DNA of 64,000 bases from Catajapyx aquilonaris (GCA_000934665.2 KZ538595.1:1-64000); one strand, 5' to 3'; positions 9,441-60,470 are shown, numbered from the stretch's first letter. Notes: a model not told the origin generated them from the letters alone. Program-made: numbers and translations.

Positions 9441-9679
9441 AGGCCGCTTCACAAACTCGGCGTTGCGAAAGCGTGGCGTGTGGGCCTTACGCTCATCGCA
9501 CGCAGAAAGTCCACCCGATTGGACGCCAGCGCAACGCCCGCGCTCGGTCATCGCACGCAGCATTTGTGAATAGCCCTTCGCAAATTTTCCGCTCTCCGTA
9601 CGCCCCGCTCGCGCAAATCCGGGTTTGTAAAACGGGCATTTCGCCCCGCTTTCGCAACGCCGAGTTTGTGAAGCGGCCT
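9441..9679. mobile_element. 239-bp MITE, PIF/Harbinger (Tourist)-like
   Basis: Perfect 33-bp terminal inverted repeats AGGCCGCTTCACAAACTCGGCGTTGCGAAAGCG (9441-9473 and 9647-9679) flanked by TAA target duplications (9438-9440, 9680-9682). Confidence 0.85.
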
Positions 9680-9741
9680 TAAGCTGCTATTGGGAGACGG
9701 GGGGCAGCTGCTGTGCGATGTCTGGCCCTGGCGAATCCAAG

Positions 9742-12533: not shown

Positions 12534-14189
12534 TCACTTCGGAGGCAGAACAACAAGGGTCATGCCAACTTGGAGCATGTTCTGGCACGTTTCCAATGCC
12601 GACCTGATGGCTGCCATCCTGACAACCTTCAGGTCGATTAAAGTGTCCGCACCTAAATTAATCCACGGGGCTTCCCGGACGTCTCCTGAGACGACACCCA
12701 TTATGCCGTCCGGGATGACCTCTACCCACCCTTCAACTTGATCCCTCCTGACCAGTGAGCAGCAGCAGTGACGGTCACTTCTGTCCCTCCAGAGGTGATG
12801 GTAAGCGCTATCCAACAGCACGACACCACATCTTGATCCTGCGATGCATCTAGCAACATGCAACAAGCTGCCTGACAGCCAACCGCAGCTTTCCAGGATG
12901 TCGGATCTCCTCATGCCGCCTGCAGGATGCCCTAGCGTACCCTGAAACATCAAGATGAAGTCGCAGCTTACAAGCAACTGAAGTATTACGCCTCACCTTC
13001 TGCTGGATCCGCATAGCCATTGTGGCCTCAAAGCATCCTCCACCTGGCAAAACATGTGGATCGTGCAGCATGATGCGCAGAGAGTCGAGAACCTGCTGGC
13101 AAACCACCTGGAACATTGTCGCAATAATCGCAGATGCTGATTTTACGACTTCAATGAGACAATCACCTTCAATTCTTCAGCGCCTTCTGGAGTCCATGCT
13201 GTTACTCTGACTGTGATGATGTTTCCCTCCGAGTTGGCCAACAGCAAGAAGGTTCGGTCGTTCCTTCTGACCACACTCACTGATGACAACCTTCCACATC
13301 CGTCTGCTCCGGTTCCAGTCAGCCGTGCAAAATGTCCGGCTTGATCTGTCCCAAGTCGCTCCAGCACAACGATGCCTCTCCGTCGCATCTTGTCTCTAAA
13401 TCCTGGCGAAACCACTTTTTGACATGCGACCAGTTTTGTCTCCAGCGTGACCAGTTCAGCATCACCACTGTTGAGCCCACATGTAAAAAGCATTGTTGAT
13501 GTCTCGCCAAGTTCACACATTGCGCCCAACTCTTCCACTGCAGGTTCAGGGTACAATATGCCTTCAAACAGCTCAGATTTTCCATCGCCCGTGTGGGACA
13601 CGAGGATAACTTCTCCTTGAGTGTGCTGGTTGTCCGGAATTCGCTGCAGGAAGGCTTTCAGTAATGTAATTGCGACCAGGTGCTGGTCACAGTTCAGTCG
13701 CACAAGAGGCTTGGAGCGGATTATGGTCCGCACTACTGCTAACATGTGTGGCGCTTCCCAGTCGGTCCTGCCCGCATCCAATTCTATTTCGTGGAGTAGC
13801 TGACATGCCGCAGCCAGCGCATCTCTCTTCATCACTTGGTTGATGGACGACCGAAGCACATTCGCCAGCAGAGTCGTGGTCAGAGTCGCCACGTACAAAC
13901 CCCCGTCGCCGTACTCCCGTAGCTGTCCTTCAGCCGTAGCGCTCATCATCTCAACCAGCGGGTTGCCCACCTTGAAGTTGGGCGCGATCCGTTTGAAGGA
14001 AGACGTCACAATGTCGTCGGAAGGGAGGGAGATCAGCTTGAGCCCTGCGTTTGCGCCCAGGCAGGACTCCCACATGCGCTGGGCCATCTTCAACTGGTTC
14101 GCAAACTGGCTGCCATTCAACGGCTGAGTAACGACCCGCGTTCCTTGCTGCACGCCCAGGCGCAACGACACGCTCCTCTTACCAGCCAT
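12534..14189 (-). CDS. MKKS: McKusick-Kaufman/Bardet-Biedl syndrome chaperonin-like protein (BBS6)
   Basis: Predicted exons 14189-13167, 13107-12997, 12941-12534 (~513 aa). Motifs SCLGANAGLKL, YGDGGLY, IIRSKP, VACQKVV..IVVLERLG, VLPGGGCFE, HLW..CCCSL and C-terminal A.ETCQNML resemble MKKS rather than canonical CCT subunits (no GDGTT). Confidence 0.85.
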
Positions 14190-14280
14190 GCCTGCAACAA
14201 CTCGCATTCAAACCATAAAAAAGGGAACAATCAAAATAATCTTATTGATTCGCTGGCGTATGTACAACTACGGAGCTCTC

Positions 14281-22009: not shown

Positions 22010-22497
22010 CAGGTCGGGGTGCGGTGGAATGTCGCCGCCTTCTCTCGATGGGACAGGACTTGTTTACCACCCGGTTGCTGCGGATACCACAGGGTGCCAA
22101 TAATAATTGTTGGCTCTCAGGTATACACTGGGTTGCCCATGATGCTATTGCGAATAATTGGGCCACTGCTATATGCACAGCAGACTCCCGCTGATCTATA
22201 GTGTACTGTACGTGAATGCAAGTCGTATTCTGGAAATCAATTTTGGTACACCTGGTCTGTATGACACATGATCAAAGAGCAGGAGGAAAAAAAAAAACAA
22301 TGGGTTTCATATATAGGAATCAATCGACACCTGAAGCAATTAATCATGTTGCTTGCTCCTGTTTCCAGCAGTAGTGCTCCTTTCAGGCCGTCACTGCTGG
22401 GACCTAGTGGTATAATTGAATTATCGACATTTGAATAAGAGTAGTGTGCACTCCAGCAGTAATAACAGACGTATAGCTCATTCAGAGACACTGCATC

Positions 22498-24521
22498 ATG
22501 CTTCGTGGTTCCTCGAGACAGTTTCCTCACCTCAAGAGGGTCAGCGTGATTGCCCACATTTTGTGTATGTTCTGGTGCATCTCATCAGTGGAGTCGGCCA
22601 GGTTGGACAATTCGCATTTTCTGGCCGAACGTGCTCCGGATAAGGACATTCGATTGGTCTCCTCGTTCGTGCATGGTCTCATGAGTCAGGTGCACCCACG
22701 ATGCGTGCTGGGGATTGGAACTCATCGTCACCTTCATGCTAAACAGTGGACTCCTCTCCTGACCATAATGAACAGAGAGTACCTGGTGGCCGTCCAGGTC
22801 ACGGGAAGGTCACCAGGAGAAGACCCCCGACCAGAGGTGGAGATGGAGACATACTCAAAGGTCAAGTTGGGTCACTGCGTGGTTCACTTTCTGGTGGGGA
22901 CCAGCGAGGACCAGTTGGGACCAGTGTTGGTCCATCTGAGGAGGAGGGTCAAGGTGCAGCTGGACCAGGACCACTTCCTCATCTGGACAGTTGGTGGTGA
23001 GGATGACTGTGGCCTGATGGCCCGGTGGGCAAAGGGGATAAAGTTCAAGCTGGGTCTGAGGGTGGTCACCTCCTCCTCCTCCTCCAACAATGGTTCTGCT
23101 GCAGTCCAGCTGTCCACCGCCTGCTTCTTCTGCGACCATGGAAGCCCAAGGGTCATCCACCTGCCAGAGTTATACGACGGAAGAGACTCGTCGTACTTCC
23201 GTCGGAGGGACGTGTTTCCGGACATGACCCGTGACCTGGGAGGGAAGACGCTGCGGGTGTCTAATCTGCGCAGGATGGAATACGAGGAGGTGAACGCGAG
23301 GTACTTGTCCCATGGACCCAGAAGCATCGAGTGCGACCTCCTGATATTCCACTGGGTGGCCCAGAAGATGAACTTCACCTACACGATGGACCGGATGGAA
23401 CCGGAGGAGTGGCTGGAGGAGCGTCTCTGGAACGGTTCCTTCATCGGCACTGTGGACCACCTGCTGAGGGGCAAGTGCGACGTGGCCTTCCTCTCCCGAT
23501 ACTCCGAGGAGAGCCTTCCCTTCGTCGGGTTCTCCTCACCCATATTCTTCGCCTCCATGGGATTCCTGACTGGCAGGCCCCGGGAGGCCACCTCCCGCTG
23601 GGAAGCCACGGTCCGGCCGTACACCTGCAGCATGTGGGTCCTCCTCCTGCTCTCGCTCTTCGTCTCCTCTCTCGCGTTGGCTGCCCTGATTGCACTGGAC
23701 CATCGAGGAAGGTCATCATCCTTTACACCCAGCAGCAGACGACTGGTGGTGGATTCCCTCCGGTGCTGCGCCAGAGCCTTGGTTGAGCAGAGCTCCCCGG
23801 TCGCCTTCCTTGCCAATCGGCCCCCAGCAGGCTGTTCTTCTCCTTCTTGCTCTACTTCTCCATGGTGATGTGCTGCGGATACAGGGAGATGCTCATCTCC
23901 TTCCTGACCATCCCTGTCCAATCCGCCCTTCCCCGGTCCTTCCCGGACATAGCCCGTCTCCAGTACCAGCCGGGCATCCCTTACACGCACCGCATAATCC
24001 TCCAGGCCTTTGTCAACAAGGCGCGGATCCCCGTCTACACGGAGATATTCGACAGGATGGACGACTACAGAGACGAGCTGGAGTGCATGAGGGCCACTCT
24101 GCTGGAAGGGGACAGGGTGGCCTGCATCTCCTTCTCCCTGACCATGGAGGACTTGTCCAGCCTCTTCGTCACTAGTCGAGGGGAAGGCCTGCTGGTCATA
24201 GCCCCTGCCATGGAGTTGTTCTTCTTCTCCGGGTCCTCGTTCAGGAAGGACGGACTCATCAGGGACGCGTACTCGGCCGTGCTGGACGGACTGTCCGCTG
24301 GAGGACTCCTGGACTACTCCAGGAGGATCGGCACGGACCTCAACTTCAGGAAGGGACTTGCTGCTGCCAGGGACACTGCTCCGTACGCTCAAGACGAGTC
24401 GCATGTCCGACCTCTCTCGGCGGGGAACCTGGAGAGCTCTCTTCTTCTTCTGTGCATCGGATTCGTCCTGGCCATTCTCGCATTTCTCTCAGAATTAATC
24501 ACAGGACGCTGCACTCAATAG
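22498..24521 (+). pseudogene. Divergent ionotropic receptor copy 1, single frameshift (pseudogene or sequencing error)
   Basis: ORFs 22498-23868 and 23847-24521 join if one base is added near the C5 run at 23821-23825, restoring ..PSRLFFSFLLYFSMVMCCGYRE. Otherwise signal peptide, S1, M1-M3, S2 and M4 are intact. Confidence 0.75.
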
Positions 24522-24940
24522 TATATGGAGTCTGTCAACAACAACAAAAAAATGCAGTGTGGAATTATCCCACCAACGTTATAGGAATGCACCTTATTAG
24601 GTCAATATTTCACGCGCTATTTCCACGAATGTGAAGCAATAAATTGTGGCACGGGAATATTATTGCAGACAGCAAAAGTGGCCAAAGAGAAAAATTACGG
24701 ATTGTCCATACCATACACTTATGTGCGCCGAAGTCTAATTTGAGAGCAGAGTATACTTCCAGGCACATGTGCTGCTGGCAGAATTGATGGGTAATTACAC
24801 GAAGGCCTCCTCCTATGTACGTATTATTCATGGTGTGCTTCAAATAGCATATGGGTGCACCTCCAGTACGGGGGATTCATATCGGAATACCGCGAAGACA
24901 GTTTGCCTGCAGGTGCTTCAGATATTGTGCCGATAACAGC

Positions 24941-27004
24941 ATGATGGTGGACTTATCTCGCCTGCTGGAAACAAACCTGCTGTCGTGTTGGTGCCTCTGG
25001 TCGTCACTGACCCTCGTTTCTCCGTGTCTCCGCCGGGACAATGTGACTATCAGGGAGATATCTCTGCTGGAGAGAGACATTCACCTGGTGTCCTCCTTCG
25101 TGCACGGGTTGCTAAGTCACGGGGACCACCGTTGCGTGCTGGTGATTGCCAGCATCAGCGACAGCATCAGGCGATCACACTGGACTCCTCTCCTGACCAG
25201 AATGAACAGCGAGTACCTGATGACCGTACAGGTCACGGGAAGGTCACATGGGGAGGACCCCCAACCAGAGGTGGAGATGGAGACATACTCAAAGGTCAAG
25301 TTGGGTCACTGCGTGGTTCACTTTCTGGTGGGGACCAGCGAGGACAAGTTGGGACCAGTGTTGGTCCATCTGAGGAGGAGGGTCAAGGTGCAGCTGGACC
25401 AGGACCACTTCCTCATCTGGACAGTTGGAGGTGAGGATGACCGCGACCTGATGGCCCGGTGGGCAAAGGGGATAAAGTTCAAGCTGGGTCTGAGGGTGGT
25501 CACCTTCTCCTCCTCCTCCAACAATGGGTCTGCTGCGGTCCAGCTGTCCACCGTCTGCTTCTTCTGCGACCATGGAAGCCCGAGGGTCATCCGCCTGCCA
25601 GAGATATACGACGGAAGAGACTCGTCGTACTTCCGTCGGAGGGACCTCCAGCTGTTTCCGGACATGACCAGAGACCTGCAGAGTGCAACACTGAGGGTGG
25701 CGTACATAGCAGAAATGGATTACAAAGAGGCCCAGGCAGCCCACGACGTCGGTCGCAGGAACAGCAGAAGCGACCGGCTGATCATGTACTGGATATCCCG
25801 GAAGATGAACTTCACCTACGTGTCCGCCTTGATGGACCCGGCCGAACTCCTCGAGTCCCGTCGTCCAAACGGCACTTTCATCGGGACAGTGGACTACCTT
25901 CTGAAGGACAGGTGCGACATCGCTTTCGTGTCCCGCAGCTCCGAGGAGAGCCTTCCCTTCGTGGACTTCTCCCGTCCGATCTACTACCTGTCCCTGCGGT
26001 TCCTGACCGGGAGGCCAGACACGATGGCCTCCTGGGAGGCGGTGGTGAGGCCGTACTCCCTGGAGCTGTGGGCGCTCATCTTCCTGGCCATGCTCTTCTC
26101 CTCCTTTGCCCTGGCACTGCTCTTCAAGGCGACGTCGGCTGGTCTTCAGGTGCAAAGTCGCTTCCTGGACGAGTACGTTTCCGCCGTACGGTACGTGTCT
26201 CGAGCCATGTTGGAGCAGAATCCGGTGAAGGAGTTTCCGGAAGGGGATGCCCCCAGAGTGGTCTTCGTCGTCTGGCTGTACTTCTCCATGGTCATCTCGT
26301 GCGGCTACCAGGAGATGCTGTTCTCCTTCCTCAGCATCCCAGTCCTCCAGCCCATCCCTCGGTCCTTCTCCGACATACCCTCGTCCCCGTACACGTCCGG
26401 AATCCCGTTCGGACACGGCGTACCCCTGCAGTCCTTTGTGAACGACGCGGACATTCCTCTGTACAAGGACCTGTTCGCACGGAACGAGCAGTTCAGCACC
26501 GAGTTCGAGTGCATCAGCGCCTGTCTGGAGAGGAAGGTGGCCTGCATGACCTTCTCCATGGTGCTGGAGATCCAGATCGGAATGTTCGTCACCAGCTCTG
26601 GACAGAACCTGCTGGTCCTGGCCCCGGCAAGGGAGTTCCTCATGCTGGCAGTGTCCTCCTTCCAGAAGAATGGACTCATCCGGAAGTCCTACGACGACGC
26701 CGTCAGCGGCCTCATCGAAGGAGGGCTCGTCGAGTACTCGATCCAAATCTCGACCGACAATCGCTTTCAAGTCGGTCTGGAGCTGGCCAGGGAGAGGAAG
26801 GACTCTGGAGGAGATCAGGTGGTTTCTGCTGATGGCACTGGAGAGGTGGTCAAGCCTCTCCAATTGGCCAACCTCCAGAGCGCCTTCTTGCTGGCCAAGG
26901 TTGGGTGGACCCTGGCCATGGCCGCATTTCTAGCCGAATTACTGGCCAGGAGAATTATTGTCAGGAGACGGAGAGAAAAACAAACATGGAATTTCATGCT
27001 TTGA
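24941..27004 (+). CDS. Divergent ionotropic receptor copy 2, intronless
   Basis: S1 (KMNF..NGTFIGTVDYLL..CDIA..VDFSRP), M1 (RPYSLELW), M3 (WLYFSMVISCGYQEML.SFL..P), M4 (PLQLANLQSAFLL). ORF is open from 24851; start chosen near the hydrophobic leader. Confidence 0.85.
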   Translation: MMVDLSRLLETNLLSCWCLWSSLTLVSPCLRRDNVTIREISLLERDIHLVSSFVHGLLSHGDHRCVLVIASISDSIRRSHWTPLLTRMNSEYLMTVQVTGRSHGEDPQPEVEMETYSKVKLGHCVVHFLVGTSEDKLGPVLVHLRRRVKVQLDQDHFLIWTVGGEDDRDLMARWAKGIKFKLGLRVVTFSSSSNNGSAAVQLSTVCFFCDHGSPRVIRLPEIYDGRDSSYFRRRDLQLFPDMTRDLQSATLRVAYIAEMDYKEAQAAHDVGRRNSRSDRLIMYWISRKMNFTYVSALMDPAELLESRRPNGTFIGTVDYLLKDRCDIAFVSRSSEESLPFVDFSRPIYYLSLRFLTGRPDTMASWEAVVRPYSLELWALIFLAMLFSSFALALLFKATSAGLQVQSRFLDEYVSAVRYVSRAMLEQNPVKEFPEGDAPRVVFVVWLYFSMVISCGYQEMLFSFLSIPVLQPIPRSFSDIPSSPYTSGIPFGHGVPLQSFVNDADIPLYKDLFARNEQFSTEFECISACLERKVACMTFSMVLEIQIGMFVTSSGQNLLVLAPAREFLMLAVSSFQKNGLIRKSYDDAVSGLIEGGLVEYSIQISTDNRFQVGLELARERKDSGGDQVVSADGTGEVVKPLQLANLQSAFLLAKVGWTLAMAAFLAELLARRIIVRRRREKQTWNFML

Positions 27005-27850
27005 ACGATGTTATGTGGTAACATTATTTTGATGAATCCGACACGATTGTATGCTGTGCGAGACAATTTTGCACAGTACACAACCTGATTGTAGCAATAC
27101 ACAATTCTGCAATATTTTGTTGCCTTCTTTCGCCAATGTACAAAGTGTTCCAATAATATTGATCTGTGATTAACAGTTTCTTCTTTTTTTTTTTTGCACC
27201 AACGTGATTATTTAAAGTGTTTACTTCCTTGGGGACTATCGAGAAATTATATTGTCTGTAAGTAACTGAGGATACATCATTTGAGGAAAGTAAGCAAGCA
27301 GCCGGAAGGCAGCATAATTATGTCAAATACAGTGGAGAGAGTACAGTGTCAAGCAATGAGAGGCAGATGAGAGGTGAATGAAAGGTAAGTGAAATACTGA
27401 CGAAAGAAATAACTGATTATTATTCAGGTTACACTTCTTAAGACATTCCGTGTCAAAAATAATGCGTTGTGTAACCCCTGCGCACCTGCAATCATCCGTA
27501 ATTCCCTTCACATCGATAACAATATATTGCTAGTTTCAGTCTATAGAATTAGCTCAGTCGCCTTATAGTACTCTGTTGGCCTTGAGATATACTATATAGA
27601 GCTTCTCTTATTCATTTTTATATCCATAATGGGAGTGTGCACCACGAGGTTTGCGACATCCATACCGCTGGATGTGCAGTACTTATGCCAAGACGGGCAT
27701 ACAAGTATGTCGGGTCTGGTGACTGCTTTTGTCGCTTTGTGACACTCACTGTGGCCGTCGGTGCAGCAATGCCTGTTTCCTGATGACAGCGTGATGGCTT
27801 GACCAGGCCCCTCATTGTTGTAGGACGCGGATGAATAACGGTGCAGCAAC

Positions 27851-30028
27851 ATGATGTCCGCGTGTGACAGAAGCGACAGTGTGGACATCAGCCTGAAGGC
27901 ATCACGAACGCGCCGCTGCTACCTTTGGGTACTTGTTGCAGTCATGGCGACGACGTTGCCATCATCGTCTCAGGCCGTACCGTCTATTAGAAGGGATGAC
28001 ATCGACTTGGACACCCAGCACGTGGCTTTGGTCTCTTCCTTCGTGCATGGCCTCATGAGTCAGGTGCACCCACGATGCGTCCTGGTGATTGGGACCCACC
28101 GCTCCGATGGCCTAAACACTAAACGGTGGACTCCTCTCCTGACCAGCATGAACAGCGAGTACCTGATGGCCGTCCAGGTCACGGGAAGGTCGCAGGGTGA
28201 GGACCCCCGACCAGAGGTGGAGATGGAGACATACTCAAAGGTCAAGTTGGGTCACTGCGTGGTTCACTTTCTAGTGGGGACTTGCGAGGACCAGTTGGGA
28301 CCAGTGTTGGTCCATCTGAGGAGGAAGGTCAAGGTGCAGCTGGACCGGGACCGCTTCCTCTTCTGGACCATTGGAGGTGAGGACGAGCGTGACCTGATGG
28401 CCCGGTGGGCAAAGGGGATAAAGTTCAAGCTGGGTCTGAGGGTGGTCTCCTCCTCCAACAATGGATCTGACGAGGGAGGAGTGGTCCAGCTGTCCACGGC
28501 ATGCTTCTTCTGCAACCAGGGAAACCCAAGGGTCATCCACCTGCCAGAGTTATACGACGGAAGAGACTCGTCGTACTTCCGTCGGAGGGGCGTCCATCAT
28601 CATCAGTTGTTTCCGGACATGACGAAGGAGTTGAAGGGCAAGGAACTGCGGGTGGCCCACATATACAGAATGGACTTGGAGGAGACTCGATCGGAATACG
28701 AGCAGCACGGTCGCAGGGGGGTCAGAAGCGATCAGCTCATCATGTACTGGATATCCAGGAAGATGAACTTCAGCTACGTGCCCGACAACCTGGACCCGGC
28801 CGAAATGCTGGAGTCTCGTCGTCCGAACGGCACCTTCGTCGGGACAGTGGACCACCTTCTGAACGACAAGTGCGACATCGCCATAGTGTCCCGCAGTTCC
28901 GAGGAGAGCCTTCCCTTCGTGGACTTGTCCCGTCCATTCTACTTTGTGCCCATACGTTTCTTGACCCGGAGGCCTCCTTCCTCCAGGCCTACCTGGAACG
29001 CCATGATCCGGCCCTTCTCCCGCGCCCTGTGGATCCTCATCTGGATCTGCTGCCTCCTCGTGGCCATCCTCCTCAGCGCCTTCTCACATGCAGCAGACCA
29101 TCATGATGGGAGAATAAGGTGGTTTCGCCCCGATGTCCTGTTCAGGTCTGTGGAGTACTGCGCCAGAGCCCTGGTCGAGTAACACGCAGAGTACTGTCCA
29201 GTCGGCGGCGCCTGCCCCAGCCTCCTGCTGTCCATCTGGCTCTTCTTGGCCATGGTGGTGTGCTGCGGATACAGGGAGAGGCTGTTCTTGTACATGACCG
29301 TCCCCGTGCACCCACCCCTCCCTCAGGAGTTTGGAGACATCCCGTCTTCCCCGTACAGGTCGGCCATACCCTACGGTCACGGCCTAGTGCTGCAGCCTCT
29401 GGTGGACAGGGCAGGGATACCTCTGTACAGCCAGATCTTCGCCCAGAACGAGCAGTATTCGGACGAGTTCGAATGCATGAGTGCTTGTCTGGAGACGGAG
29501 GTGGCCTGCATCTCCTTCTCTCTCATTCTGGAGGTGGTTTCCAGCCTGTACGTGACGGTGGACGGGGAGGACCTGCTGGTCATAGCCCCTGCCAGGGAGT
29601 TCTTCTCCTACTTCGGGTCGGGGTTCAGGAAGGACGGGCTCATCATGGCCACCTACGATCGGGTGCTGGCCGGTCTGGTCCAGTCAGGGCTGGTCGACTA
29701 CACGCTGGAAACCACCAAGGAGCATTACCTCAAGGTGGGGATGGCCAGGGCCAGGGTCAGGGACGGAGGGTCATCCAAGGTCAACGAGCGAGTGGGACAA
29801 GGGAAGGAGCCCCTCAGTCTGACCCATCTCGAGAGCTCCTTTTTGATGCTGGTGCTCGGCTGGTCTGCTGGGATCATCCTGCACGCTCTCCTGCAATTGA
29901 AAGTGTCCATTATGAAGCGGAAAAAGAATGCCTCATCGTCTATAAATGAGAGGCTTTCACAGTTAGAAACCAAAAGCATCGCGTCATACGCAGGCGATGC
30001 CAATGTTCAATACAACTTTTTGAGGTGA
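27851..30028 (+). pseudogene. Divergent ionotropic receptor copy 3, one in-frame TAA at 29180-29182
   Basis: ORFs 27851-29182 and 29246-30028 are in the same frame. The TAA replaces the Gln of the ARA(L/M)(V/I)EQ motif seen in the five paralogs; no other lesion seen. Confidence 0.75.
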
Positions 30029-30720
30029 TCGAAGGCGTGAAACTTACTTCCGCAAAATGGCCAGTTTCAAAAATTACTCTGCTTTGGATTATTGATTAGG
30101 CAACAGTCGTTTTTTAATAATAATCTACGAATGACTGTGTCATCATTAGCTGGGATTCACAATTTCATGTGCTCTCTGTGTAGTCCCCATACATGCGTTG
30201 CATTGACATGACTGTACCTACATATTACAGTTCTCATAGGCAATAAATCGTACTTGTCAGAATTATCCCATCCATACATCTCGAACCGCAAAAATTATTA
30301 TCCCCCCCACGAACCAACCCAGCCAGTCATGAATAAGGCACAATCTCTGCGAATTGTATGATCGATGGCCGCTAACAACATGTGATTTTCCGCCCGAGTT
30401 ATTGGCTGTATATGATCACAAGCCTCATTTAATTAAGAATGAAGTAACTACTAGTCCACACAACACTTATCTTGGTAACATTATATACAGTTTGGTTTGC
30501 AAGGAAGACAGAATGTGGGAGGCCCTTCTCCCAATGTAAATGGCACGTCTAGCCATAGAACTCGTCCTCCTGCTGTGAAGGCCATGTGAATGTTCTACAG
30601 GACTTCTCTTCCTCTATCATCCAGAGACACATTAGTATACAGCTGGTAAGTGACAATGCAAATTTCACCCCTGGTTTTTTAAAGGGTTTCTTCTCCTTTT
30701 CAGAAGGTGTGTGCCACAGG

Positions 30721-32799
30721 ATGGTCAGTGGAATGGATTTGATCGTCTGGACGTCACTGCTTCTGTCATTGATGTCTTCCTCTTGCGCTAGGTTCGCAAG
30801 CATACGCACCCTGCAGGAAAAAGAGGTCAGTCTGGTCTCTTCGTTCGTGTACGGGCTGATGACCCACGTGCACCCCCGATGCGTGCTGGTGATTGGGACA
30901 CAACACGACGTCGATGCGACCCTTTGGACTCCTCTCCTGACCAGCATGAACAGAGAGTACCTGATGGCCGTCCAGGTGACGGGAAGGTCCCAAGGGGAGG
31001 ACCCCCAACCAGAGGTGGAGATGGAGACATACTCAAAGGTCAAGTTGGGTCACTGCGTGGTTCACTTTCTCGTGGGGAGCAGCGAGGACCAGTTGGGACC
31101 AGTGTTGGTCCATCTGAGGAGGAAGGTCAAGGTGCAGCTGGACCAGGACCACTTCCTCTTCTGGACAATTGGTGGTGAGAATGACCGTGGTCTGATGGCC
31201 CGGTGGGCGAAGGGGATAAAGTTCAAGCTGGGTCTGAGGGTGGTCACCTCCTCCTCCTCCTCCAACAATGGGTCTGCTGCAGTCCAGCTGTCCACCGCCT
31301 GCTTCTTCTGCGACCATGGAAGCCCAAGGGTCATCCACCTGCCAGAGTTATACGACGGAAGAGACTCGTCGTACTTCCGTCGGAGGGGAGTCCAGCTGTT
31401 TCCGGACATGACCAAAGACTTGCAGGGCATAAATCTTCGAATAGCGTTCATGTATCGGATTGACTACGAGGAGACCAAGGTTGAGTACGAGAATGGCGGT
31501 CGCCTAGGAGTCCGAGGTGATCGCCTGATCATGTACTGGATATCCAGGAAGATGAACTTCTCCTACGTGCACGACAACCTGGAGCCGCACGAACTGCTGG
31601 AGTCCCGTCGTCCAAACGGCACTTTCATCGGGACAGTGGACCACCTCCTGAACGACAAGTGCGACATCGCTTTCGTGTCCCGCAGCTACCAGGAGAGCCT
31701 TCCCTTCGTGGACTTCTCTTCCCCATTGTTCTTCGTGTCCATGCGATTTGTGACCAGCAGACCAGAACCAATTCCCACGTCCTGGACGGTCATAACCCGT
31801 CCGTACACACCCGGCATGTGGGGTCTGATCCTCCTCTGCCACCTTCTTTCTTCCCTGTTGCTGGCCGCCTTCTTCAGCGCCATTGACCACCGGACGAGGG
31901 TCATCGGGTTCGCGTCAGCCTGGGGCCACTGCGCCCGCGCACTGATCGAACAGGACGCCATGTACCCTACGTCGGCGGTCATAATGTCGCCCCGTTTCGT
32001 GTTCGCTGTCTGGCTGTACTTCGCCATGGTCATATGCTGCGGGTACAGGGAGATGCTGTTCATGTACCTGACCTTCAGTTCGCACGAGCCTCTTCCCCAG
32101 GAGTACGGGGACATCCCGTCGTCTCCGTACAAGGCAGCCGCTCCGTACACCCACACCGTCCTTCTCCAGTGGTTCGTGGAGCAGGCTGGCATCCCATTCT
32201 ACCTGGACATGTTCTCCAAACTGAAGCTGTTTTCCAGCGAGTACGAGTGCATGGAGGCCTGTCTGACCGGGAGGGTGGCCTGCCTCTCCTTCTCCTTGAC
32301 CCTGGAGGTCGAGAGCGGACTGTACGTGACCTCCGAGGGCGAGCCCCTGCTGGTGCTGGCCCCAGCAGCAGAGTTCGCCTCCTTCTACGCGTCCACCTTC
32401 AGGAAGGACGGGGTCATCAGGGGGACATTCGACCAAGTGGCCCAAGGATTGAAGCAGGGAGGCTTCTTCGACTACAGTCTCCACTCGGACAGGGAGAGGA
32501 ACTTCAGGTCTGGTCGAGCTGCGGCCCAATCCAGGGAAGAAAGTGCTGGAGGAGGAAAGGACCCCTACGACTCCATGTCCGCCAGCAGCACTAGCAATAA
32601 CCACAACAACAAGGCTCTCTCCATGTACAACTTGAAGAGCTCTTTCCTGCTGCTGGCGTCTGGATGCTGCCTTGCCATCTCAGTCTGGGCAGCGCAGTTC
32701 TTGCAGAGAGGACTGGAGACCAATAAGGCGGCCAGCAGAGTTGGCCCCAAGAGATTAGCGCTAATAGTGTACGACAGGAGTTACGGATTTTTAGAGTGA
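30721..32799 (+). CDS. Divergent ionotropic receptor copy 4, intronless
   Basis: Signal peptide MVSGMDLIVWTSLLLSLMSSSCA and the same IR motifs as paralogs (RPY..W, YFAMVICCGYREML, LSMYNLKSSFLLL). Confidence 0.85.
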   Translation: MVSGMDLIVWTSLLLSLMSSSCARFASIRTLQEKEVSLVSSFVYGLMTHVHPRCVLVIGTQHDVDATLWTPLLTSMNREYLMAVQVTGRSQGEDPQPEVEMETYSKVKLGHCVVHFLVGSSEDQLGPVLVHLRRKVKVQLDQDHFLFWTIGGENDRGLMARWAKGIKFKLGLRVVTSSSSSNNGSAAVQLSTACFFCDHGSPRVIHLPELYDGRDSSYFRRRGVQLFPDMTKDLQGINLRIAFMYRIDYEETKVEYENGGRLGVRGDRLIMYWISRKMNFSYVHDNLEPHELLESRRPNGTFIGTVDHLLNDKCDIAFVSRSYQESLPFVDFSSPLFFVSMRFVTSRPEPIPTSWTVITRPYTPGMWGLILLCHLLSSLLLAAFFSAIDHRTRVIGFASAWGHCARALIEQDAMYPTSAVIMSPRFVFAVWLYFAMVICCGYREMLFMYLTFSSHEPLPQEYGDIPSSPYKAAAPYTHTVLLQWFVEQAGIPFYLDMFSKLKLFSSEYECMEACLTGRVACLSFSLTLEVESGLYVTSEGEPLLVLAPAAEFASFYASTFRKDGVIRGTFDQVAQGLKQGGFFDYSLHSDRERNFRSGRAAAQSREESAGGGKDPYDSMSASSTSNNHNNKALSMYNLKSSFLLLASGCCLAISVWAAQFLQRGLETNKAASRVGPKRLALIVYDRSYGFLE

Positions 32800-34159
32800 A
32801 TATAGATACTATCTGCAGAGACACTGGGACAGGCAGCTCTTCTATGGACATTCATTTTTGGAAAAGAGGTTGCATGCAGGGATCAGATCCATAACAGTAG
32901 TCTGTTTTCGTTTTCAAGTACCAACGTATTTAAAAAAAATAAAATTTAAAAGCTAAATGCTGATTTCACATCTGCAAAGAGTGAAGTGCAATATACAGGA
33001 CAGACTGTCTATTTCTATTACATACTTTTAACTTTGGTTCAAGCATAACAATTAATTTTTAAATAGCAAGTCCATACGATATCTGATATTCTGCTTAATA
33101 AAAAAATCTAGTGCCGTACCTCCTATTTAAAAATTCAACCCAAATGTACGAATTTAATTTCAATAAATCGTGAAGGGTAGCTAATCGCAACGAAATTACT
33201 TCACATGCGATGTCAATTAAAAGATAAGCTATATTTGTACGCATCTGACAACTGCAAGCTCGACGAGAAAGCTATATTATTATTTGAGGATGCATTGAGC
33301 TACATACTGTATAGGCTAGAGCGCATGACATGAGCCGACAAGTAAAAACAATGTTTCCTGCGGAACAAGTATTATACAATGCGAATTCGAGCAATACGGA
33401 TTAATCATTCAACACATGGCCTAGTTACACGTGCAACTGGCATTTATTATTTTTGTATGAACCTATGGGGGAAGCCGGCATCAAATTCCATGCCGAAAGG
33501 CGATAAATAAGGACCAAATTGCCAATATTTGCGGAGCGACGAAGCCTCCTCTCCGTACTTACGGAGGAAGTTGCGTCACACGTGGACACGCCCGCAATAT
33601 GTTCACAGATGTCAGGAATAGCTCTTTATGCCAGTGACTCAGAGACAAATGAGGAGAGGTTAAGGTCACGTGGTTGCTGTCGATTTGGGACGGGATGCCG
33701 GGATGACCTTCGCGACTTCGTATTTCATTTGTCTCGCAGACGCGTGCAGGGCATGTAATTTGATTACAGTGTACCATGCTACAGCGTACACAGTCTTCGG
33801 TGCCACAGAAGCGATATCTGATAATTTTTGTCAGACACTCATATGACCACCAATATTCACCTGTCGTACAGGTAAGCACCATATGGATTTTCCTGCTTTA
33901 CAGTACAGCAGTGATACACATGACGTACAACTCGCGTTTCTAATTATTATGTTGCAATATATTGTGATGCATTGCTCAAATGTGTGCTCTTATTTTGCAG
34001 ATGACGGGGCAACCGCTTGGAAAGTTTATGGAAAGGAAAGGACTTTTGCGACGATTTCGATAATACAGCCGCAGTCAATGGCCAATCCATGACTTGGACA
34101 ACGGGAAGACTCCACAGGTTTTAAAGAGCTCAGTGAGGTCTTCACAAAAATTTTCGAGA

Positions 34160-36169
34160 ATGTTTACAAAAGCCACATTGCTTTTCATTTTGGGATTAGT
34201 ACTCTACTTTCCACTTGGTCACTCGAGACACTTGATGAGAGAAACCACGACCTTAGACAGAGAGGTCAGTCTGGTCTCTTCGTTTGTGCAGGGGGTTATG
34301 AGACATGTGCACTCCCGCTGCTTGCTCGTGATTGGAACCCCAGACGGTACTCTGCAGACACACTGGGCCTCTCTCTTGCACGAAATGAACAGAGAGTACC
34401 TGATGGCCATCCAGGTCACGGGAAGGTCACATGGTGAGGACCCCCTACCAGAGGTGGAGATGGAGACATACTCAAAGGTCAAGTTGGGTCAGTGTGCGGT
34501 TCACTTTCTGGTGGCGACTAGTGAGGACCAGTTGGGATCGGTGTTGGTCCATCTGAGAAGGAAGGTCAAGGTCCAGCTGGATCAGGACCACTTCCTCTTC
34601 TGGACAATTGGGGGCGGAGGGGATGACCACGTAGAGCAGCGGGATGTGCTGCTGACCCAGTGGACAAAGACGATTAAGTTCAAGCTAAGTCTGATCGTGC
34701 TGGCGGACGAGATTCACCTGTCCACAGCCTGCTTGTTCTGCGACCACGGAAGCCCAAAGGTCATCCACCTGGCCCAGTACGACGGGAGCGACCATCAGTA
34801 CTTCCGGAGGGGAATCCAGTTGAGTCCGGACACGAGCAGAGACTTGGGTGGTTCCGAGGTGAAGGTGGTGAACATGTACCCTTTGGAATACCAGAGGACA
34901 AAGGCGTTGCTCGACAGGTACGGTCGTCGCATCCAATTGACAGCAGGCGATCAGACCCTGATAAGCGACCAGCTGATAATGTACTGGATCGCCCAGAAGA
35001 TGAACTTTGTCTACTCGGTGGACCCCCTTTCCTTGGAGGAGCTGATGGAGGAGCGCCTTCCCAACGGCTCCTTCGTGGGCTCCGTCAACCACCTCCTGAA
35101 CCACCGATGCGACATCTCATTTCTGTCCCACCTATACGAGGAGAGCATCCCATTCGCGGATTTCGGCACCCCCATCTACTACTCCACGATGAGCTTCGTC
35201 ACCAGGAGACCCCTGCCCATCATGGCCTCCTGGGAAACCATAGTCCGACCATACAGCTACGCTCTCTGGGCGCTCATCTTCTCCAACCTCGTCTTCTCAT
35301 CACTGGTTCTCTCAGTCCTGTTCTCCCTTTCCGCAGCCAGCAAACCGAGCAGCAGGTTCCAGTCCGCGTTCGTGACTTCTCTGACGGCCTGTGCTCGGGC
35401 TATGATTGAACAGAACTCGAGACTCATTCCATCAGGAAGTGCCCCCCGACTCTTCTTCGCCTTCTGGCTCTACTTCGGTTTGGTCATATGCTGCGGGTAC
35501 AGGGAGATTCTCTTCACCTACCTGACCGTCCCAGCACACGAGGCAGTCCCCCGTTCCTTCTCGGACATCCTGTCCTTTCCGTACCAGCCTGGTATTCCTT
35601 ACGTCCACGGACTGATACTCCAGGGTTACGTGGACAAGGCAGGGCTGCCCCTGTTCAGCGAGGTATTCTCCAGGAACGAGCAGCACCGAGACGAGTTGGA
35701 GTGCATGATCGCATGTCTTCAGGAGAGCAAGACGGCCTGCATCACCTTCACCACCTTCCTGGAGATCGAGAACAGGCTGTTCGTCACTCCAGAAGGAGAT
35801 CCACTGCTGGAGGTGGCTCCTGCCAGGGACTTCTTCACCTACTACGCCTCCTCTCTCAACAAGTACTCCCCGATCACAAGCACCTTCAACCAGGTCATCG
35901 CCGGTCTCATGCAAGGAGGGTTCGTCGACTACGCCCTGCAGGTCATGTCAGACGCCTTCTTCGCCCAGGGTCTGAAAAATGCCGGGCATTTTTCGTCGAG
36001 GAAATGTGTTCCCCTAGCATGGGCCAACCTGCAGAGCTTGTTCTTGCTCATGTTCGTTGGGTGGTCTCTCAGCTCGGCCATTTTCGTCGCACAACTTGCA
36101 CACCAGTGGGTCAAAGGGTGTGGCAACGGTCAATTGCGCGGGTCTCGTCGTGCTGACCTGAAATGCTGA
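34160..36169 (+). CDS. Divergent ionotropic receptor copy 5, intronless
   Basis: Signal peptide MFTKATLLFILGLVLYFPLGHS; IR motifs NGSFVGSV..CDI, RPYSYALW, YFGLVICCGYREIL, PLAWANLQSLFLL. Confidence 0.85.
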   Translation: MFTKATLLFILGLVLYFPLGHSRHLMRETTTLDREVSLVSSFVQGVMRHVHSRCLLVIGTPDGTLQTHWASLLHEMNREYLMAIQVTGRSHGEDPLPEVEMETYSKVKLGQCAVHFLVATSEDQLGSVLVHLRRKVKVQLDQDHFLFWTIGGGGDDHVEQRDVLLTQWTKTIKFKLSLIVLADEIHLSTACLFCDHGSPKVIHLAQYDGSDHQYFRRGIQLSPDTSRDLGGSEVKVVNMYPLEYQRTKALLDRYGRRIQLTAGDQTLISDQLIMYWIAQKMNFVYSVDPLSLEELMEERLPNGSFVGSVNHLLNHRCDISFLSHLYEESIPFADFGTPIYYSTMSFVTRRPLPIMASWETIVRPYSYALWALIFSNLVFSSLVLSVLFSLSAASKPSSRFQSAFVTSLTACARAMIEQNSRLIPSGSAPRLFFAFWLYFGLVICCGYREILFTYLTVPAHEAVPRSFSDILSFPYQPGIPYVHGLILQGYVDKAGLPLFSEVFSRNEQHRDELECMIACLQESKTACITFTTFLEIENRLFVTPEGDPLLEVAPARDFFTYYASSLNKYSPITSTFNQVIAGLMQGGFVDYALQVMSDAFFAQGLKNAGHFSSRKCVPLAWANLQSLFLLMFVGWSLSSAIFVAQLAHQWVKGCGNGQLRGSRRADLKC

Positions 36170-37334
36170 TACAGGAACAGCCAACACAAGCTGAGATTTT
36201 CCATTGCAGGCATTTTATAATTTTGGACCAGGTGGCCCTTCCTCCACATAACAGTGCTCGTGCCCACGACGAAAATGTCCAGTTTAAGACAGAAATCCGA
36301 AAATGGACAACCCTCGCATGCATAATAATAAACGCTACGGATGTAACTACTTACATCATCAAAGACAATGCAAAAATAAAAATCATTACACAACAGACAT
36401 GCAGCTCAAATGTGACAGTTCAGCAGACACGCCTTTCTTCTAGGCGTGGACAGCAGCACCAACTGACAACCCAAATAATGAATTATGTGGGATGGGTTTC
36501 TTTCAATAAACGGGGCCATAATTTCCCGCATTGGGTTCGTCACGTCATATTATGTGACACTACTTCACATGATTACGACCATTTGTCGCGAGTGTATATA
36601 CAAATTCGGAATATTATTACATGCCACATGCGTCAACCAGACCGTTTCTGGTGTCAAATGGGCACACCCATACTTCCACAAAACACTAATAAATTCACCC
36701 TGCTTGAAGTCATGCCACTGTTTTATTTTGAAGAAATCTATTGCAGCTTTTTTGTTTGCCATTTTGGCACTGCCCATCATTTGTCACCTCCAAGCAATAA
36801 AATAGTGCACCTACTGGACTTGTGCAGAAACCAGCTCATGGTGAGACTCGAACATGACTGACACCCAGCCAGGAGCAGACTATTCATTATACTATCGGAT
36901 GTAATTGCCGGATAGGAAGGTAAACACTGACACTGGATAAGTAGCGATAATTACCTAATTAGTATTATCAGGGGTATATATATATATATATCAGAGGTTT
37001 TTGTCAAATCACTAATTGAGCCTGACAAATCTGTTATATTTTATCCAAATAGTGCTTATTATACTTAATAATAATTTTACGTACAGTATCATATATAATG
37101 TAATGAACTTGGTCTCTTCCAGGACCATCCAGTGCAATAATTGAGATCACAATTGCCACTCCAACCCAGGTCATGAACGACTCTTCACCTTCACTGCCTG
37201 TAATTCGACGCATCAGCACCAGCTATGACAACACTGCCTCGGCACAATTTTTTTTAAAGCGACCTGTTACTGCATCTTTGCAGTACTAATCGTGTAGCAA
37301 TAAGTGAGAGTGTCACTATAATTGCACGGGGATT

Positions 37335-39344
37335 ATGGAGTCACTCGTGGTTATTGGTTGGCTATGCTGGGCAATTATGCGAATCACCACGTGTCAGACG
37401 CAATTTTTCGATCAGGACAATCCAGGTCTGGAAGACCAAGTTCATCTGGTGTCTTCGTTCGTGTACGGGCTGATGAGACATGTGCACCCACGATGCGTGC
37501 TGGTGATTGGGGCACAACACGACGTCGATGCGACCCTTTGGACTCCTCTCCTGCACCGGATGAGCGAAGAGTACCTGATGGCCGTCCAGGTGACGGGAAG
37601 GTCCCAAGGGGAGGACCCCCAACCAGAGGTGGAGATGGAGACATACTCGAAGGTCGGGTTGGGTCACTGCGTGGTTCACTTTCTGGTGGGCACCAACGAG
37701 GACCAGTTGGGACCAGTGTTGGTCCATCTGAGAAGGAAGGTCAAGGTGCAGCTGGACCAGGACCGATTTCTCATCTGGACAGTTGGTGGTGATGACCATG
37801 GCCTGAAGGACGTGCTTCTGACCCGGCGGGCAAAGGGGATAAAGTTCAAGCTGGGTCTGAGGGTGGTCACCTCCTCCTCCAACAATGGTTCTGATGCAGT
37901 CCAGCTGTCCACCGCCTGCTTCTTCTGCGACCAGGGAAGCCCAAGGGTCATCCGCCTGCCAGAGTTATACGACGGAAGAGACTCGTCGTACTTCCGTCGG
38001 AGGGGAGTCCAGCTGTTTCCGGACATGACCCGAGACCTGGGAGGGAAGACGCTGCGAGTGACCAACTTGAGGCCAACGGAATACGACCAAGTCAAGTCCG
38101 AGTACGACAGCGACGGGCGGCGGGGGATGTGCACCTGCCTGATGATGCTGTACTTGATCGCCCAGAAGATGCGATTCCGGTTCACCTCCGACCTTCTGCC
38201 TCCCGAGGAACTTCTGGAGGAGCGCCTCCCCAACGGCACCTTCATCGGCAGTGTGGACCACCTTCTGAAGGGCAAAGGCGACTTGGCTCTCTTGTCCCGC
38301 AGCTCCGAGGAGAGCCTCCCCTTCGTGGAATTCAGCACTCAGATGTACCACCTGTCCCTGCGATTCGTGACCAGGCAGCCGGACGCCGTCCCCTCCTGGG
38401 AGGCCATCCTGCGACCCTACACCTACGGGATGTGGTCGCTCATCCTCCTCTGCCACCTGGTCTCCTCCGTGGTCCTGGCTGCGATGCTGTGGACCACCAC
38501 CAGACGACCTGGCCAGCACACCACACCCAGCAGCAGATCAGACGCCGTGGTGCTGTTGAGTCACACCTCCGGGCAGTGCGCCCGAAGCATGATCGAGCAG
38601 AACTCGAGCCTTCCCTCGGAAGACGCCCCCCGCCTCTTCTTCGCCTTCTGGCTGTACTACGCCATGGTCATTGCCTGCGGCTACAGGGAGATGCTCATCT
38701 CCTTCCTGACCATACCAGTGCTCCAGCCCCTCCCTCGGTCCTTCTCCGACATCCCGTCGCTTCACTACCGCACTGCCTTCCCGTACATCCACGCCTTGGT
38801 CATGCAAGCCCCAGTGCAGATAGCGGGCATCCCTCTGTACCTGCAGATACTGTCTGAGAAGGAGCTGTACAGGGACGAGCGTGACTGCTTGGCTGCCTGT
38901 CTGGAAGGCAGCAGGAAGGTGGCCTGCATCGGAATCGCCCCTGTCCTGGAAGAATCGTTGGGCCTTTACGTGACCAGAAAAGGAAGGCCACTGCTGGTGG
39001 TGGCACCCGCCAGAGAGTTCGCAACTGGACATGGGTCTGCATTCAGGAAAGACGATGCAGTGATTCGGGGGACATACAGTGGAGCGGTCAACGGGCTGCA
39101 CCAGGGAGGACTGGTTGAGTACGCCCTCAAGTGCGTCGGAGAAACTTACTTTCGGACCGGGCTGAGGAATGCCAAAGAGAGCCGCGGATGGTGGTCGGAG
39201 GATGACGAGGAAGCGACAAGTCCTCTGTCGGTGTCCAACTTGCAGAGCGCTTTCCTGCTCTTGGTGGTCGGGTGGGCCATTAGCACTGTGGCTTATCTGG
39301 TCGCCATTCTGGCTCAGAGGAGGAGGCACCCACATCTGGCATGA
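37335..39344 (+). CDS. Divergent ionotropic receptor copy 6, intronless
   Basis: 669-aa ORF with signal peptide and IR motifs (NGTFIGSVDHLLKGKGDLA, RPYTYGMW, YYAMVIACGYREML, PLSVSNLQSAFLLL). Confidence 0.85.
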   Translation: MESLVVIGWLCWAIMRITTCQTQFFDQDNPGLEDQVHLVSSFVYGLMRHVHPRCVLVIGAQHDVDATLWTPLLHRMSEEYLMAVQVTGRSQGEDPQPEVEMETYSKVGLGHCVVHFLVGTNEDQLGPVLVHLRRKVKVQLDQDRFLIWTVGGDDHGLKDVLLTRRAKGIKFKLGLRVVTSSSNNGSDAVQLSTACFFCDQGSPRVIRLPELYDGRDSSYFRRRGVQLFPDMTRDLGGKTLRVTNLRPTEYDQVKSEYDSDGRRGMCTCLMMLYLIAQKMRFRFTSDLLPPEELLEERLPNGTFIGSVDHLLKGKGDLALLSRSSEESLPFVEFSTQMYHLSLRFVTRQPDAVPSWEAILRPYTYGMWSLILLCHLVSSVVLAAMLWTTTRRPGQHTTPSSRSDAVVLLSHTSGQCARSMIEQNSSLPSEDAPRLFFAFWLYYAMVIACGYREMLISFLTIPVLQPLPRSFSDIPSLHYRTAFPYIHALVMQAPVQIAGIPLYLQILSEKELYRDERDCLAACLEGSRKVACIGIAPVLEESLGLYVTRKGRPLLVVAPAREFATGHGSAFRKDDAVIRGTYSGAVNGLHQGGLVEYALKCVGETYFRTGLRNAKESRGWWSEDDEEATSPLSVSNLQSAFLLLVVGWAISTVAYLVAILAQRRRHPHLA

Positions 39345-44628: not shown

Positions 44629-47600
44629 TCATGGCTTCAGTTTGATGACATACTCTGGGTAAAATGTATCATCATAAAACTTGACAAAAACCTTGGGGGT
44701 TTGAGGGTAGTCCACAGTTGTGTCATACTGGTGCCCAGTCAACTTGTTATCTGGAGGTTTCTTCATGTCCAGAGTGCCCTGAATTTTTTCCCCAATCAGA
44801 ACTTTGCACTGGAGAACTACTCTTGGGTTGTCCATACCTGGACAGCAACCCTCAGCATACTTGGGGCTTGCAGAAAAATACATTCCATACCCGTACATTG
44901 ACAGACCTGGTGTTAATTCACACAGGTTGTGAGAAACAACTGCAGGCAAATGCTGCAGAGATGCACCATGGTAAAGGGAAAGCTCATCCAATTTGAATAA
45001 ACGCCGCTTTCGCTCATACTGATGCAACGTTTCTTCGTTTTGGATGCGTGATATGGATTCGATGGGTTCATCTTCAAACTTGGATGCCACCTCTTTGTAC
45101 TCTGATGAGTTTGAATTGAGTGGTATCAACTGCAAACCTCCATCCGTATCTTTCCAGTGGCTGGGACGACGAACTTCTTGTTTTGGGCCACTTGTGCCCA
45201 CCTCAGTGCGCCGCACATCCCGAACCTGACGTGTAGCCATGTCAGTTTCCTTCAATTTAGTAAAATCAATAATGCTTCCAGATTCACCCCCTTCGTGGTG
45301 CATCATGCCTACAAGAAAAAAGAGAAACTTGCAAATATTATAAATGTGCATAAACAAAAGGGAAGGATGTGACCATGCCAGACGTAATAGAGATGATAAT
45401 ATGTCAGCTAAAATTGGCCATAGCAGGAAGTAAGTCATGCCCCTCCAGTGTATACCTCATCAGGTAAAATAATATTAAAGCTGGAAACATCAACCTTTAC
45501 ACAAAATAATCCCTCCCCAATTAAGGGTGCTGCTAATTACCAGTACAATTTAAAATACATGCCTGAAGGGTGTTTTACAAAATCCTTCTCAATCTTCTCA
45601 GAGTCGGTGAACTCGACCCAACGAGAACCATCTTTAAATTCCCACTGCACTCGAGTGGAAGGCAGAGGACGCCTCCTGACTGCAACACTCCCAAGCAGGT
45701 CACCAGAGGTCACCTGATCCATCATGTTGAGATAGACAACGCGATCAGGATAGTCCAGGTGCACTTGCCCGGCAGGATCCTTCTTGAATGCAGCTTCCAG
45801 TTTGCATCCATCACGCGGAGGATACATCTCCCACTCGTCATTGTTGGAGCTGGAGTGGTACCAGCGCCAGTTTGAGGGATGGGCTGAGGTCAAGCGACGC
45901 AGCTTCAGTTCGGGCTGGTCAGGTGACCTCAACACCATTTTCCCATAATCTGCTTCCCACTCAAAATTCTTAAGGAGGCTTTTCAGTGGGTCGATCTGCA
46001 TGCAGGAAAGTAATCAATTTTAGACAAACAGTATTTGATTTGATACAAATTGGGCTTTTTGTCTGTAAATCAGAGCGCTACAATAAACATAAATTCGTAT
46101 TACGTGAACTTACATTAGGAGTGGCATGGACCAATGGAGGCAGCTTCTGCATATTAACAGACACTTGCGTAAAGTGATGCTCCATGTGCGAGTCCTGATG
46201 ATCCTTTAGGTTGACCCAAAGTGACCCATCTTGGCTTGCTTGCCACAGGTAGGGTCGACTGCAGTGCACCATGGAACAGGATGCCTCTGGACAGACGCCC
46301 TCACTCTGAAAGCTGTGGCAGAGTACGGCCTGCTCTGATGGATACGGAGGGGGTAACTTGGAAAGATCCATTGCGTCATCCACAAGGGCCTCCAAAGGCA
46401 GCTCCATGCAGCTGAAGTGGGCAACGCCCTTCTTGCTCTCAACAAACACCAGCATCCAGGAGTGGTCATCACTACCAGATGACCGTGGGGTTTCTGTAGC
46501 TGAAATAAACACCATCAACATGTCAGTAGGGCAGGACGCACATGGAGAGCACAGTGCAGCCAAAAAGCAATGATAGTTTTCTTTGGTGCCGCAAAGAAAC
46601 ATGCATCTCATTCCCTGACTCCAGGGCCCTCTTCTCATTTAAATCAATTATGGACTGGCAAAGGTTATTGAAAATGCAGTAGGTCACCTGCTCGGATTGT
46701 ACTTATGATCCTGTCCGTACCAGAATTTTCATCCGGCCTGGCACGTTCCTTCCGGCCAGGCTTATTTTTCTTCTTTCTCTGGCGTTTTTCTTTCTTAGTG
46801 GTGCTCGTGGTGCTGGTCTCTGATTCTTCACTTTGGTCTGACGACCCGTCCCCATTTTTGCCAAGCTCCTCTGCAGCTGTGGATGCGGGTTGAGCCTCAG
46901 CAGTTGGCACAGAGCTCACAGGAGTAGTTGGAACCTGCAACTGACAGAAGTGACTCACAGGTCACTACTAAAAAGAAATACTGGCAGCTACTTACATTTA
47001 GTGCTATCATATATAGTAATACAACATAAAAAATAAGTAGTGTGTAATATGCTAACGATAATAATCAACTGACTGCTCAATTCATCTCTACCCACAGTTT
47101 GGAATGTTAATAAAACAATTACAAATTACTGGTACAACTGGCTAACCACAAAATTGTAAAACTGCCAAAAATGTGCAATTCTTATTAGCAGGTATTGCAT
47201 TAGCCCAACACCATAGATTTTAACCTGTAATCTGTGGTGCAGCTGTCTCTAAGGATTATTCTGACTTACATCAAATTCATTGTGACGCAGTTTGCACTCC
47301 CAGTCGCGGCACTTGCGCTCCTTCCATGCAGGGCACACCACCGTAGCAGTCCTGGCCGGTGCGTAATGGCGGTACAGGCACTTATCAAAAGGCTGAAATC
47401 ACACTGTCATTAGTGAGTTGCAAGAATCTGCACAGACTATCTCAAGTGAGTACGCTGTAACAATGACCTGAATGACTGAATGGATGCTCTCGCACACAAT
47501 ACGCTTTCTTTGCCCATGCTGCTGCATTATAACATTGCATGAGGTAAGGCACACTGTTTATAAATATCACAATTAAAACCAGAGGTCCATCATTTGAATC

Positions 47601-60422: not shown

Positions 60423-60470
60423 TTCCCGCCAGCCTGCCTGCCCACCACGGAGCATGCGCACAGGCCGAAC

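Follow-up and report, generated by a model that had tools for sequence, protein, structure and literature searches.

Recurrent gene conversion as a sequence pattern over a predicted half amino-terminal domain in divergent ionotropic receptor genes of Catajapyx aquilonaris

The 64,000-nt stretch of Catajapyx aquilonaris DNA analyzed here (GCA_000934665.2 KZ538595.1:1-64000; hereafter, the window) contains, at positions 22477-39344, six co-oriented, intronless, single-exon frames of divergent ionotropic receptors (IRs), all on the plus strand. Copy 1 (22477..24521), delimited as stop-to-stop frames, has a frameshift near 23805, ahead of M2/M3, and copy 3 (27839..30028) is interrupted by an in-frame TAA (29180-29182), after which 281 codons stay open. 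The other four are open frames of 718 codons (copy 2, 24848..27004, whose start codon is not fixed), 746 codons (copy 4, 30559..32799), 701 codons (copy 5, 34064..36169), and 678 codons (copy 6, 37308..39344). Lig_chan matches were obtained in copies 2, 4, 5, and 6, above the cut-off in copy 2 only (9.4e-08). The first Atlas hits of copy 4 are arthropod IR clusters (0.98). Its structural model has a predicted local distance difference test (pLDDT) score of 82 and matches ionotropic glutamate receptors (iGluRs); the ligand-binding domain (LBD) of the model aligns with 5ehs_B at Z 22.0 and a root mean square deviation (rmsd) of 2.8, with 234 aligned positions.

The genes thus combine an iGluR-type S1/S2 LBD and a channel domain with an N-terminal region of ~205 residues, which folds in the model as one half of an amino-terminal domain (ATD); no match to the Pfam family ANF_receptor was found in the IR copies or the members searched with their N-terminal lobe (N-lobe). 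They are tandem single-exon genes from a lineage-specific expansion, most of it in open frames of 600 to 770 codons. Expression in sensory neurons and obligate assembly with IR25a/IR8a are further marks of divergent IRs as a class. A protein database search with copy 4 gave nothing at E ≤ 0.001, N-lobe searches with cluster representatives gave 2 weak matches, and a full-length relative was not found in the protein searches. The best explanation is that the six genes are old tandem paralogs of divergent IRs, a group whose published descriptions include a lack of introns, a tandem arrangement, and a short N-terminal region (PMC2924276), as well as evolution by birth and death (PMC5850775).

Within each gene, a block of ~490 nt coding from WTPLL to FPDMT stands apart. 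An earlier reading of this DNA, made from the sequence only, had placed such a block in all six copies, and mapping located it at 22747..23229 (copy 1), 25181..25669 (copy 2), 28127..28624 (copy 3, with short slippage indels), 30925..31413 (copy 4), 34364..34837 (copy 5), and 37539..38030 (copy 6, whose likeness to copy 4 reaches ~90 nt further upstream), always on the plus strand. In copies 1 to 4 and 6, the block is 86.3 to 95.4% identical at the nucleotide level. "Nearly identical," the earlier description, which included silent sites, thus stands for a difference of 5 to 14%. Copy 5 has partly escaped, as had been noticed: It is 80.0 to 81.1% identical to the others and is best conserved at ~34385-34610. 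A 45-mer that includes the stretch singled out in the earlier reading is identical across copies 1 to 5. Downstream of the block, identity among the six copies falls to 57.7 to 63.9%, in line with the claim that S1 and S2 differ heavily, and the spacers between the copies, also said to differ, gave no blastn match at E 0.01. A genome-wide DNA search with the block yielded 6 matches, all in the array.

Synonymous divergence (dS) in the block is 0.09 to 0.30 (0.33 to 0.40 in pairs with copy 5) compared to 0.51 to 1.22 in S1, 0.68 to 1.66 in M1-M3, and 0.77 to 1.43 in S2. The sequence-only reading had named equal dS in the block and the LBD as the sign of ordinary purifying selection; the values, 0.09 to 0.30 against 0.5 to 1.7 downstream, are clearly unequal. 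Nonsynonymous divergence (dN) is likewise 0.03 to 0.13 in the block versus 0.22 to 0.69 in S1, M1-M3, and S2. Where all six copies specify one residue, their codons are identical in DNA at 65 of 86 positions in the block compared to 29 of 87 outside it (p 3e-8), and all 15 pairs gave p ≤ 0.009 in silent-site run tests. The dS trough has sharp edges, so that silent sites are homogenized within a bounded tract. Short identical patches are also seen in S1 of copies 2, 3, and 4 (25853-25894, 28739-28771, and 31528-31641), where dS among these copies is 0.51 to 0.68; this suggests older or leaking tracts.

Conversion and constraint were weighed using five sister genes, all from other contigs. Amino-acid identity between the copies and the sister genes is 41 to 46% in the block and 44 to 48% outside it, where the copies are 42 to 54% identical among themselves. 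The "constant module" proposed earlier is therefore uniform within the clade and under no stronger constraint than the rest of the gene. With one fixed topology, first and second codon positions gave a stem of 0.395 and a crown of 0.073 for the block versus 0.016 and 0.377 for the rest, for totals of 0.47 and 0.39; third positions gave stem/crown values of 0.746/0.126 and 0.404/0.695, respectively. An ordinary total rate with a recent coalescence of the block copies indicates concerted evolution rather than freezing. Its dN/dS is not below that elsewhere, and its stem branch is long, so that stronger constraint on the block is not supported. Purifying selection acting on the block DNA itself (as a regulatory element, an RNA structure, or a small-RNA target) would explain the conserved silent sites without any conversion; however, the long stem, the normal total length at both codon-position classes, the different sequence found in each clade, and the lack of an RNA folding signal in the block (z 0.05 and 0.12) already largely refute it, and we regard it as highly improbable.

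As a pattern in the DNA, the dS trough, the run tests, and the stem/crown contrast show recurrent ectopic gene conversion of the block, as the sequence-only reading had proposed. The 15 two-against-three sites in the block fall into 8 different pairings, a mosaic to which short-read misphasing could add, and conversion tract ends vary among copy pairs. cDNA-mediated conversion was set aside since it should favor 3′ ends (PMC2924276).

The likeness could also arise if the assembler had written one consensus into several genes. We checked this with the unitigs of four sequencing runs from a single sample, which may be the source of the assembly. In 4 of 4 runs, unitigs enter the block from each of the six unique flanks with zero differences and end at 22851, 25279, 28231, 30928, 34476, and 37542, that is, at the start of the copy's first shared 31-mer plus 29. 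Reads thus carry the block behind six different flanks, and the repeat is real. Both gene lesions lie in difference-free unitigs (the copy 1 frameshift in 23182-23909 and the copy 3 TAA in 28742-30928) and are free of differences in 4 of 4 runs. The assembly is fragmented (20,583 contigs), no unitig piece among those listed spans a whole block, and in a clade with 99% identity, a collapsed consensus could mask small differences. Yet the six copies differ by 5 to 20%, and contigs of the largest clade break inside the block, as a real repeat causes; together with the unitig result, this leaves an artefact hardly credible. Because no listed piece covers a whole block, variant phase inside the blocks and the pairing of 5′ with 3′ parts depend on the assembly. 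Twenty plus-strand LBD hits close to a contig start were picked by hand, and 16 of them are on contigs that begin inside the N-lobe core (G000 C11144, C6450, C11030, C6596, and others). As the block fragments the assembly, IR gene counts are unreliable.

The block covers residues 66-229 of the copy 4 model, whose LBD begins at ~231, and its end coincides with the S1 border. The N-terminal domain modeled alone (pLDDT 86) has its best match in the second half of the GluD1/GluD2 ATD (Z 12.0, rmsd 4.5, 179 aligned), and other venus-flytrap domains rank next (Z 10-11). According to these predictions, the block codes for most of a half ATD. Pfam searches with the N-lobe returned no informative family (3 weak single-member matches among 31 members), and a search of the genome for ATD-bearing genes did not identify a co-receptor. 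A cryo-EM preprint (bioRxiv 10.64898/2026.09.30.755715) reports that the tuning receptor IR75b retains the R2 lobe only, that tuning ATDs touch the co-receptor ATD and help set co-receptor choice, that tuning subunits hardly contact one another, that tuning ATDs are often weakly conserved in sequence, and that co-receptors accommodate varied tuning interfaces. The half ATD (R2 lobe) of IR75b and IR40a is comparable to the predicted lobe indirectly, through the iGluR delta ATD, whose second half the latter matches. According to a review, cilia targeting is abolished when IR84a loses its N-terminal region, and two such regions show no mutual interaction (PMC7882480). The earlier guess that the block forms a co-receptor interface fits the predicted fold and the preprint.

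IRs have expanded greatly in the genome (150 scored matches of 454 candidates), and block sequence is clade-specific, with different DNA in every clade. The C1817-type block produced 40 scored matches of 120 candidates at 92 to 100% identity, and the largest clade has at least 40 block copies, near 99%; a second homogenized group occupies at least 7 contigs (97 to 100%). To avoid selecting on the block, we used an LBD of the largest clade as the query and examined the best 30 of 104 hits. Seventeen of these, the query included, have the full 360-nt core at ≥98.6%. For 9, the contig runs out within the core, and for 3, it runs out short of the core; the remaining hit is a broken copy (87% over 97 nt). 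In 28 intact members, the proportion of synonymous differences (pS) is 0.029 in the core versus 0.67 to 0.68 in S1/S2. In these members, dN/dS is 0.48 in the core and 0.17 to 0.18 in S1/S2; across the clade, values within the block are 0.48 to 0.57, and region-wide values in S1 and S2 are 0.17 to 0.34. Compared to 12 outside genes, the core is more diverged than the LBD (proportion of nonsynonymous differences, pN, 0.45 versus 0.37 to 0.39). That selection keeps the LBDs distinct, as the sequence-only reading had it, is plausible, but the S1/S2 ratios are below 1, and region-wide positive selection in S1/S2 was not seen in this clade.

In the largest clade, 5′ ends are nearly uncorrelated with S1 (rho 0.09), whereas S1 and S2 are correlated (rho 0.70). 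In some pairs, the likeness runs into the signal peptide and upstream DNA, and in L075/L083, L072/L079, and L087/L088, upstream DNA is 89 to 96% identical while 3′ parts are 25% or more apart; these joins reflect either a crossover inside the block or assembly mis-joins. Wholesale shuffling of S1 against S2 found little support, with 1 strongly supported conflict versus 5 shared splits; the S1 and S2 trees reject each other in approximately unbiased tests run with 2000 replicates, a number flagged as too few. A sub-group of the clade has a common pore island. As to whether dead copies keep the block, the broken copies L082, L087, L125, and L129 differ at 0 to 1 of 360 core sites, but their lesions are few or insertion-derived.

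To see how general the pattern is, we surveyed 130 frames of at least 560 codons from loci found with four queries, a non-random sample. These formed 34 LBD clusters, 19 of them multi-gene and 14 testable, i.e., containing a pair at LBD pS ≥ 0.3. An island was defined as a region whose pS is at most 0.4 of that of other regions. Of the 14 testable clusters, 8 have an island in the N-terminal lobe and 4 have one in the membrane region; none has one in S1 or S2. Judged by sequence comparison, the same domain is homogenized repeatedly in independent clades by a known process. In one pair (L061:785-3082 and L170), the membrane region alone is homogenized (pS 0.04, pN 0.00), and the N-lobe is saturated. 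In another (L048:7399-9411 and L172), the N-lobe, S1, and membrane region are alike (pS 0.06 to 0.09) and S2 is at 0.50, a possible S2 replacement.

The location of the islands bears on whether position rather than function determines them. Promoter-proximal hot spots for breaks are known, and tracts started at one would extend into whatever part of the gene can first be aligned. In every case, the block occupies the 5′-most alignable 350 to 500 nt, and the likeness that some pairs show up to the signal peptide and upstream DNA would be expected on this view. However, membrane-region islands lie mid-gene, and the C656/C2569 pair (membrane pS 0.04, N-terminal domain 0.76) has no N-terminal island. 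Furthermore, in the 5 clades mapped, block edges fall inside the same lobe, with the 3′ edge at or just before the domain border. We therefore consider a purely positional cause improbable.

The explanation we favor, with moderate confidence, is that recurrent ectopic conversion persists where the copies need no individual specificity. Conversion would be wide among young duplicates and be kept only where the copies have one function. In the array, it would repeatedly overwrite the half-ATD stretch among the six genes. The lobe may do a job common to all copies, which in light of the IR literature could be co-receptor docking or support of folding and trafficking, so a pasted version would cost nothing. 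Tracts that reach S1 or S2 would either alter specificity and be lost or be unable to form after divergence. The N-lobe would be the longest stretch without copy-specific function (350 to 500 nt) and so could stay above the identity and length needs of conversion, making the process self-feeding; the minimal segment for conversion is ~200 bp (PMC3924818). This mechanism applies a published model in which selection acts against conversion (PMC3924837) and is compatible with a block that is uniform within a clade and drifts fast between clades.

Conversion could instead be favored: Each clade would require a uniform N-lobe that serves as a docking code to a co-receptor or accessory partner of its own, with which the lobe co-evolves. 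Such a code would account for the same domain being struck in 8 of 14 clusters, although the DNA involved is unrelated, and for boundaries within one structural lobe in the 5 clades mapped, and would suit both the reported contacts of tuning ATDs with co-receptor ATDs and the IR84a deletion phenotype. It is less easily reconciled with a block dN/dS above that of the LBD in the largest clade, with lobe turnover between clades as fast as that of the LBD or faster, and with co-receptors described as accommodating varied interfaces; on balance, we find it unlikely. We are similarly doubtful of a broader proposal that adds to the selected, clade-own docking code a role of the block as a joint for re-pairing promoters and signal peptides with different LBDs. 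The basis of the re-pairing is the near lack of correlation between 5′ ends and S1 and the like upstream DNA on unlike 3′ parts, which assembly mis-joins would mimic. If true, re-pairing would reshuffle which neuron expresses which specificity.

Several observations weigh against persistence of conversion through lack of individual specificity. Although the pore region of the largest clade is better conserved at the protein level (pN 0.11), most of it is not homogenized (pS 0.50). The pore segment is short, with S1 and S2 on either side, and length may be what spares it. Five of 14 clusters, the C381 array included, have no island, the cluster count comes from a non-random sample, and the LBD pS ≥ 0.3 filter disfavors S1/S2 islands. 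One pair that narrowly misses this threshold is little diverged in the N-terminal domain, S1, and membrane region, but not in S2. GC content at third positions is not raised in the block of the six copies (0.74 to 0.78 versus 0.69 to 0.86 elsewhere), unlike in fugu protocadherins. The mosaic within the block may be partly attributable to short-read misphasing, and the evidence comes from one genome and short reads, from which the pattern gives no direction, rate, or timing of conversion.

The closest precedent is regional conversion in the variable exons of clustered protocadherins (Noonan et al. 2004 as summarized in PMC3966226), with subcluster-specific converted regions near 99% in fugu (PMC1852091). 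Both systems consist of tandem single-exon paralogs in which one domain-sized region with a sharp border is homogenized, each subcluster has its own converted sequence, and specificity-bearing domains are spared. The IR array differs in that its genes encode a chemosensory ion channel and are converted in their N-terminal part, partners are also on separate contigs, and there is no common constant exon. In the red/green opsins and RHCE/RHD (PMC3924837; PMC3966226), too, divergence is kept where function differs and the rest is homogenized, but these are gene pairs with a small diverged peak in a converted pair, whereas here a small converted island stands in genes near silent saturation and in 6 to 40 or more copies. 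Published divergent tuning IRs (PMC2924276, PMC7882480, PMC5850775) share the intronless tandem arrangement, the N-terminal region of ~200 residues, the S1-M1-P-M2-S2-M3 order, expansion by duplication, and pseudogenes; published accounts present the N-terminal region of these IRs as highly divergent, in contrast to its concerted evolution within clades here. In a mite, possible conversion is mentioned among gustatory receptors only (PMC5203786). Searches of titles and the opening lines of abstracts in the open-access literature, which leave subscription papers and genome-paper supplements uncovered, returned no report of N-terminal conversion in IRs; the process is thus a known one, in a family and domain without a report found.

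Arthropod chemoreceptor families are taken to evolve by birth and death, and the N-terminal region of tuning IRs is taken as their most divergent part; here, it is repeatedly homogenized, and the homogenized region maps, by prediction, to the lobe that the new structures place on the co-receptor. "Constant/variable," the term of the sequence-only reading, describes the pattern; the status of a design goes beyond it. The blocks provide a natural map of interchangeable IR parts. They also break short-read assemblies inside IR genes, distort whole-gene trees, and make probes, RNA interference, and guides cross-react.

TAA followed by C can be a leaky stop context. The TAA of copy 3, its sole lesion, is followed by C, and the other copies have Gln at that column. 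It recalls Ir75a of Drosophila sechellia, in which a premature stop is read through (PMC7244557).

The array is flanked by polynucleotide phosphorylase-like exons (KH, S1; 9631-12300, plus strand), a TCP-1/cpn60-family frame (13143-14207, minus strand), and a PARP catalytic domain (44629-45456, minus strand). A further small gene family, for which no Pfam match was convincing, has related exons at 6444-7247 (plus strand) and at 52464-53279, 56549-57250, and 62403-63137 (minus strand); two of them are 82 to 90% alike in pieces. A 10-base tandem repeat with a 75-base N gap occupies 60141-60427.

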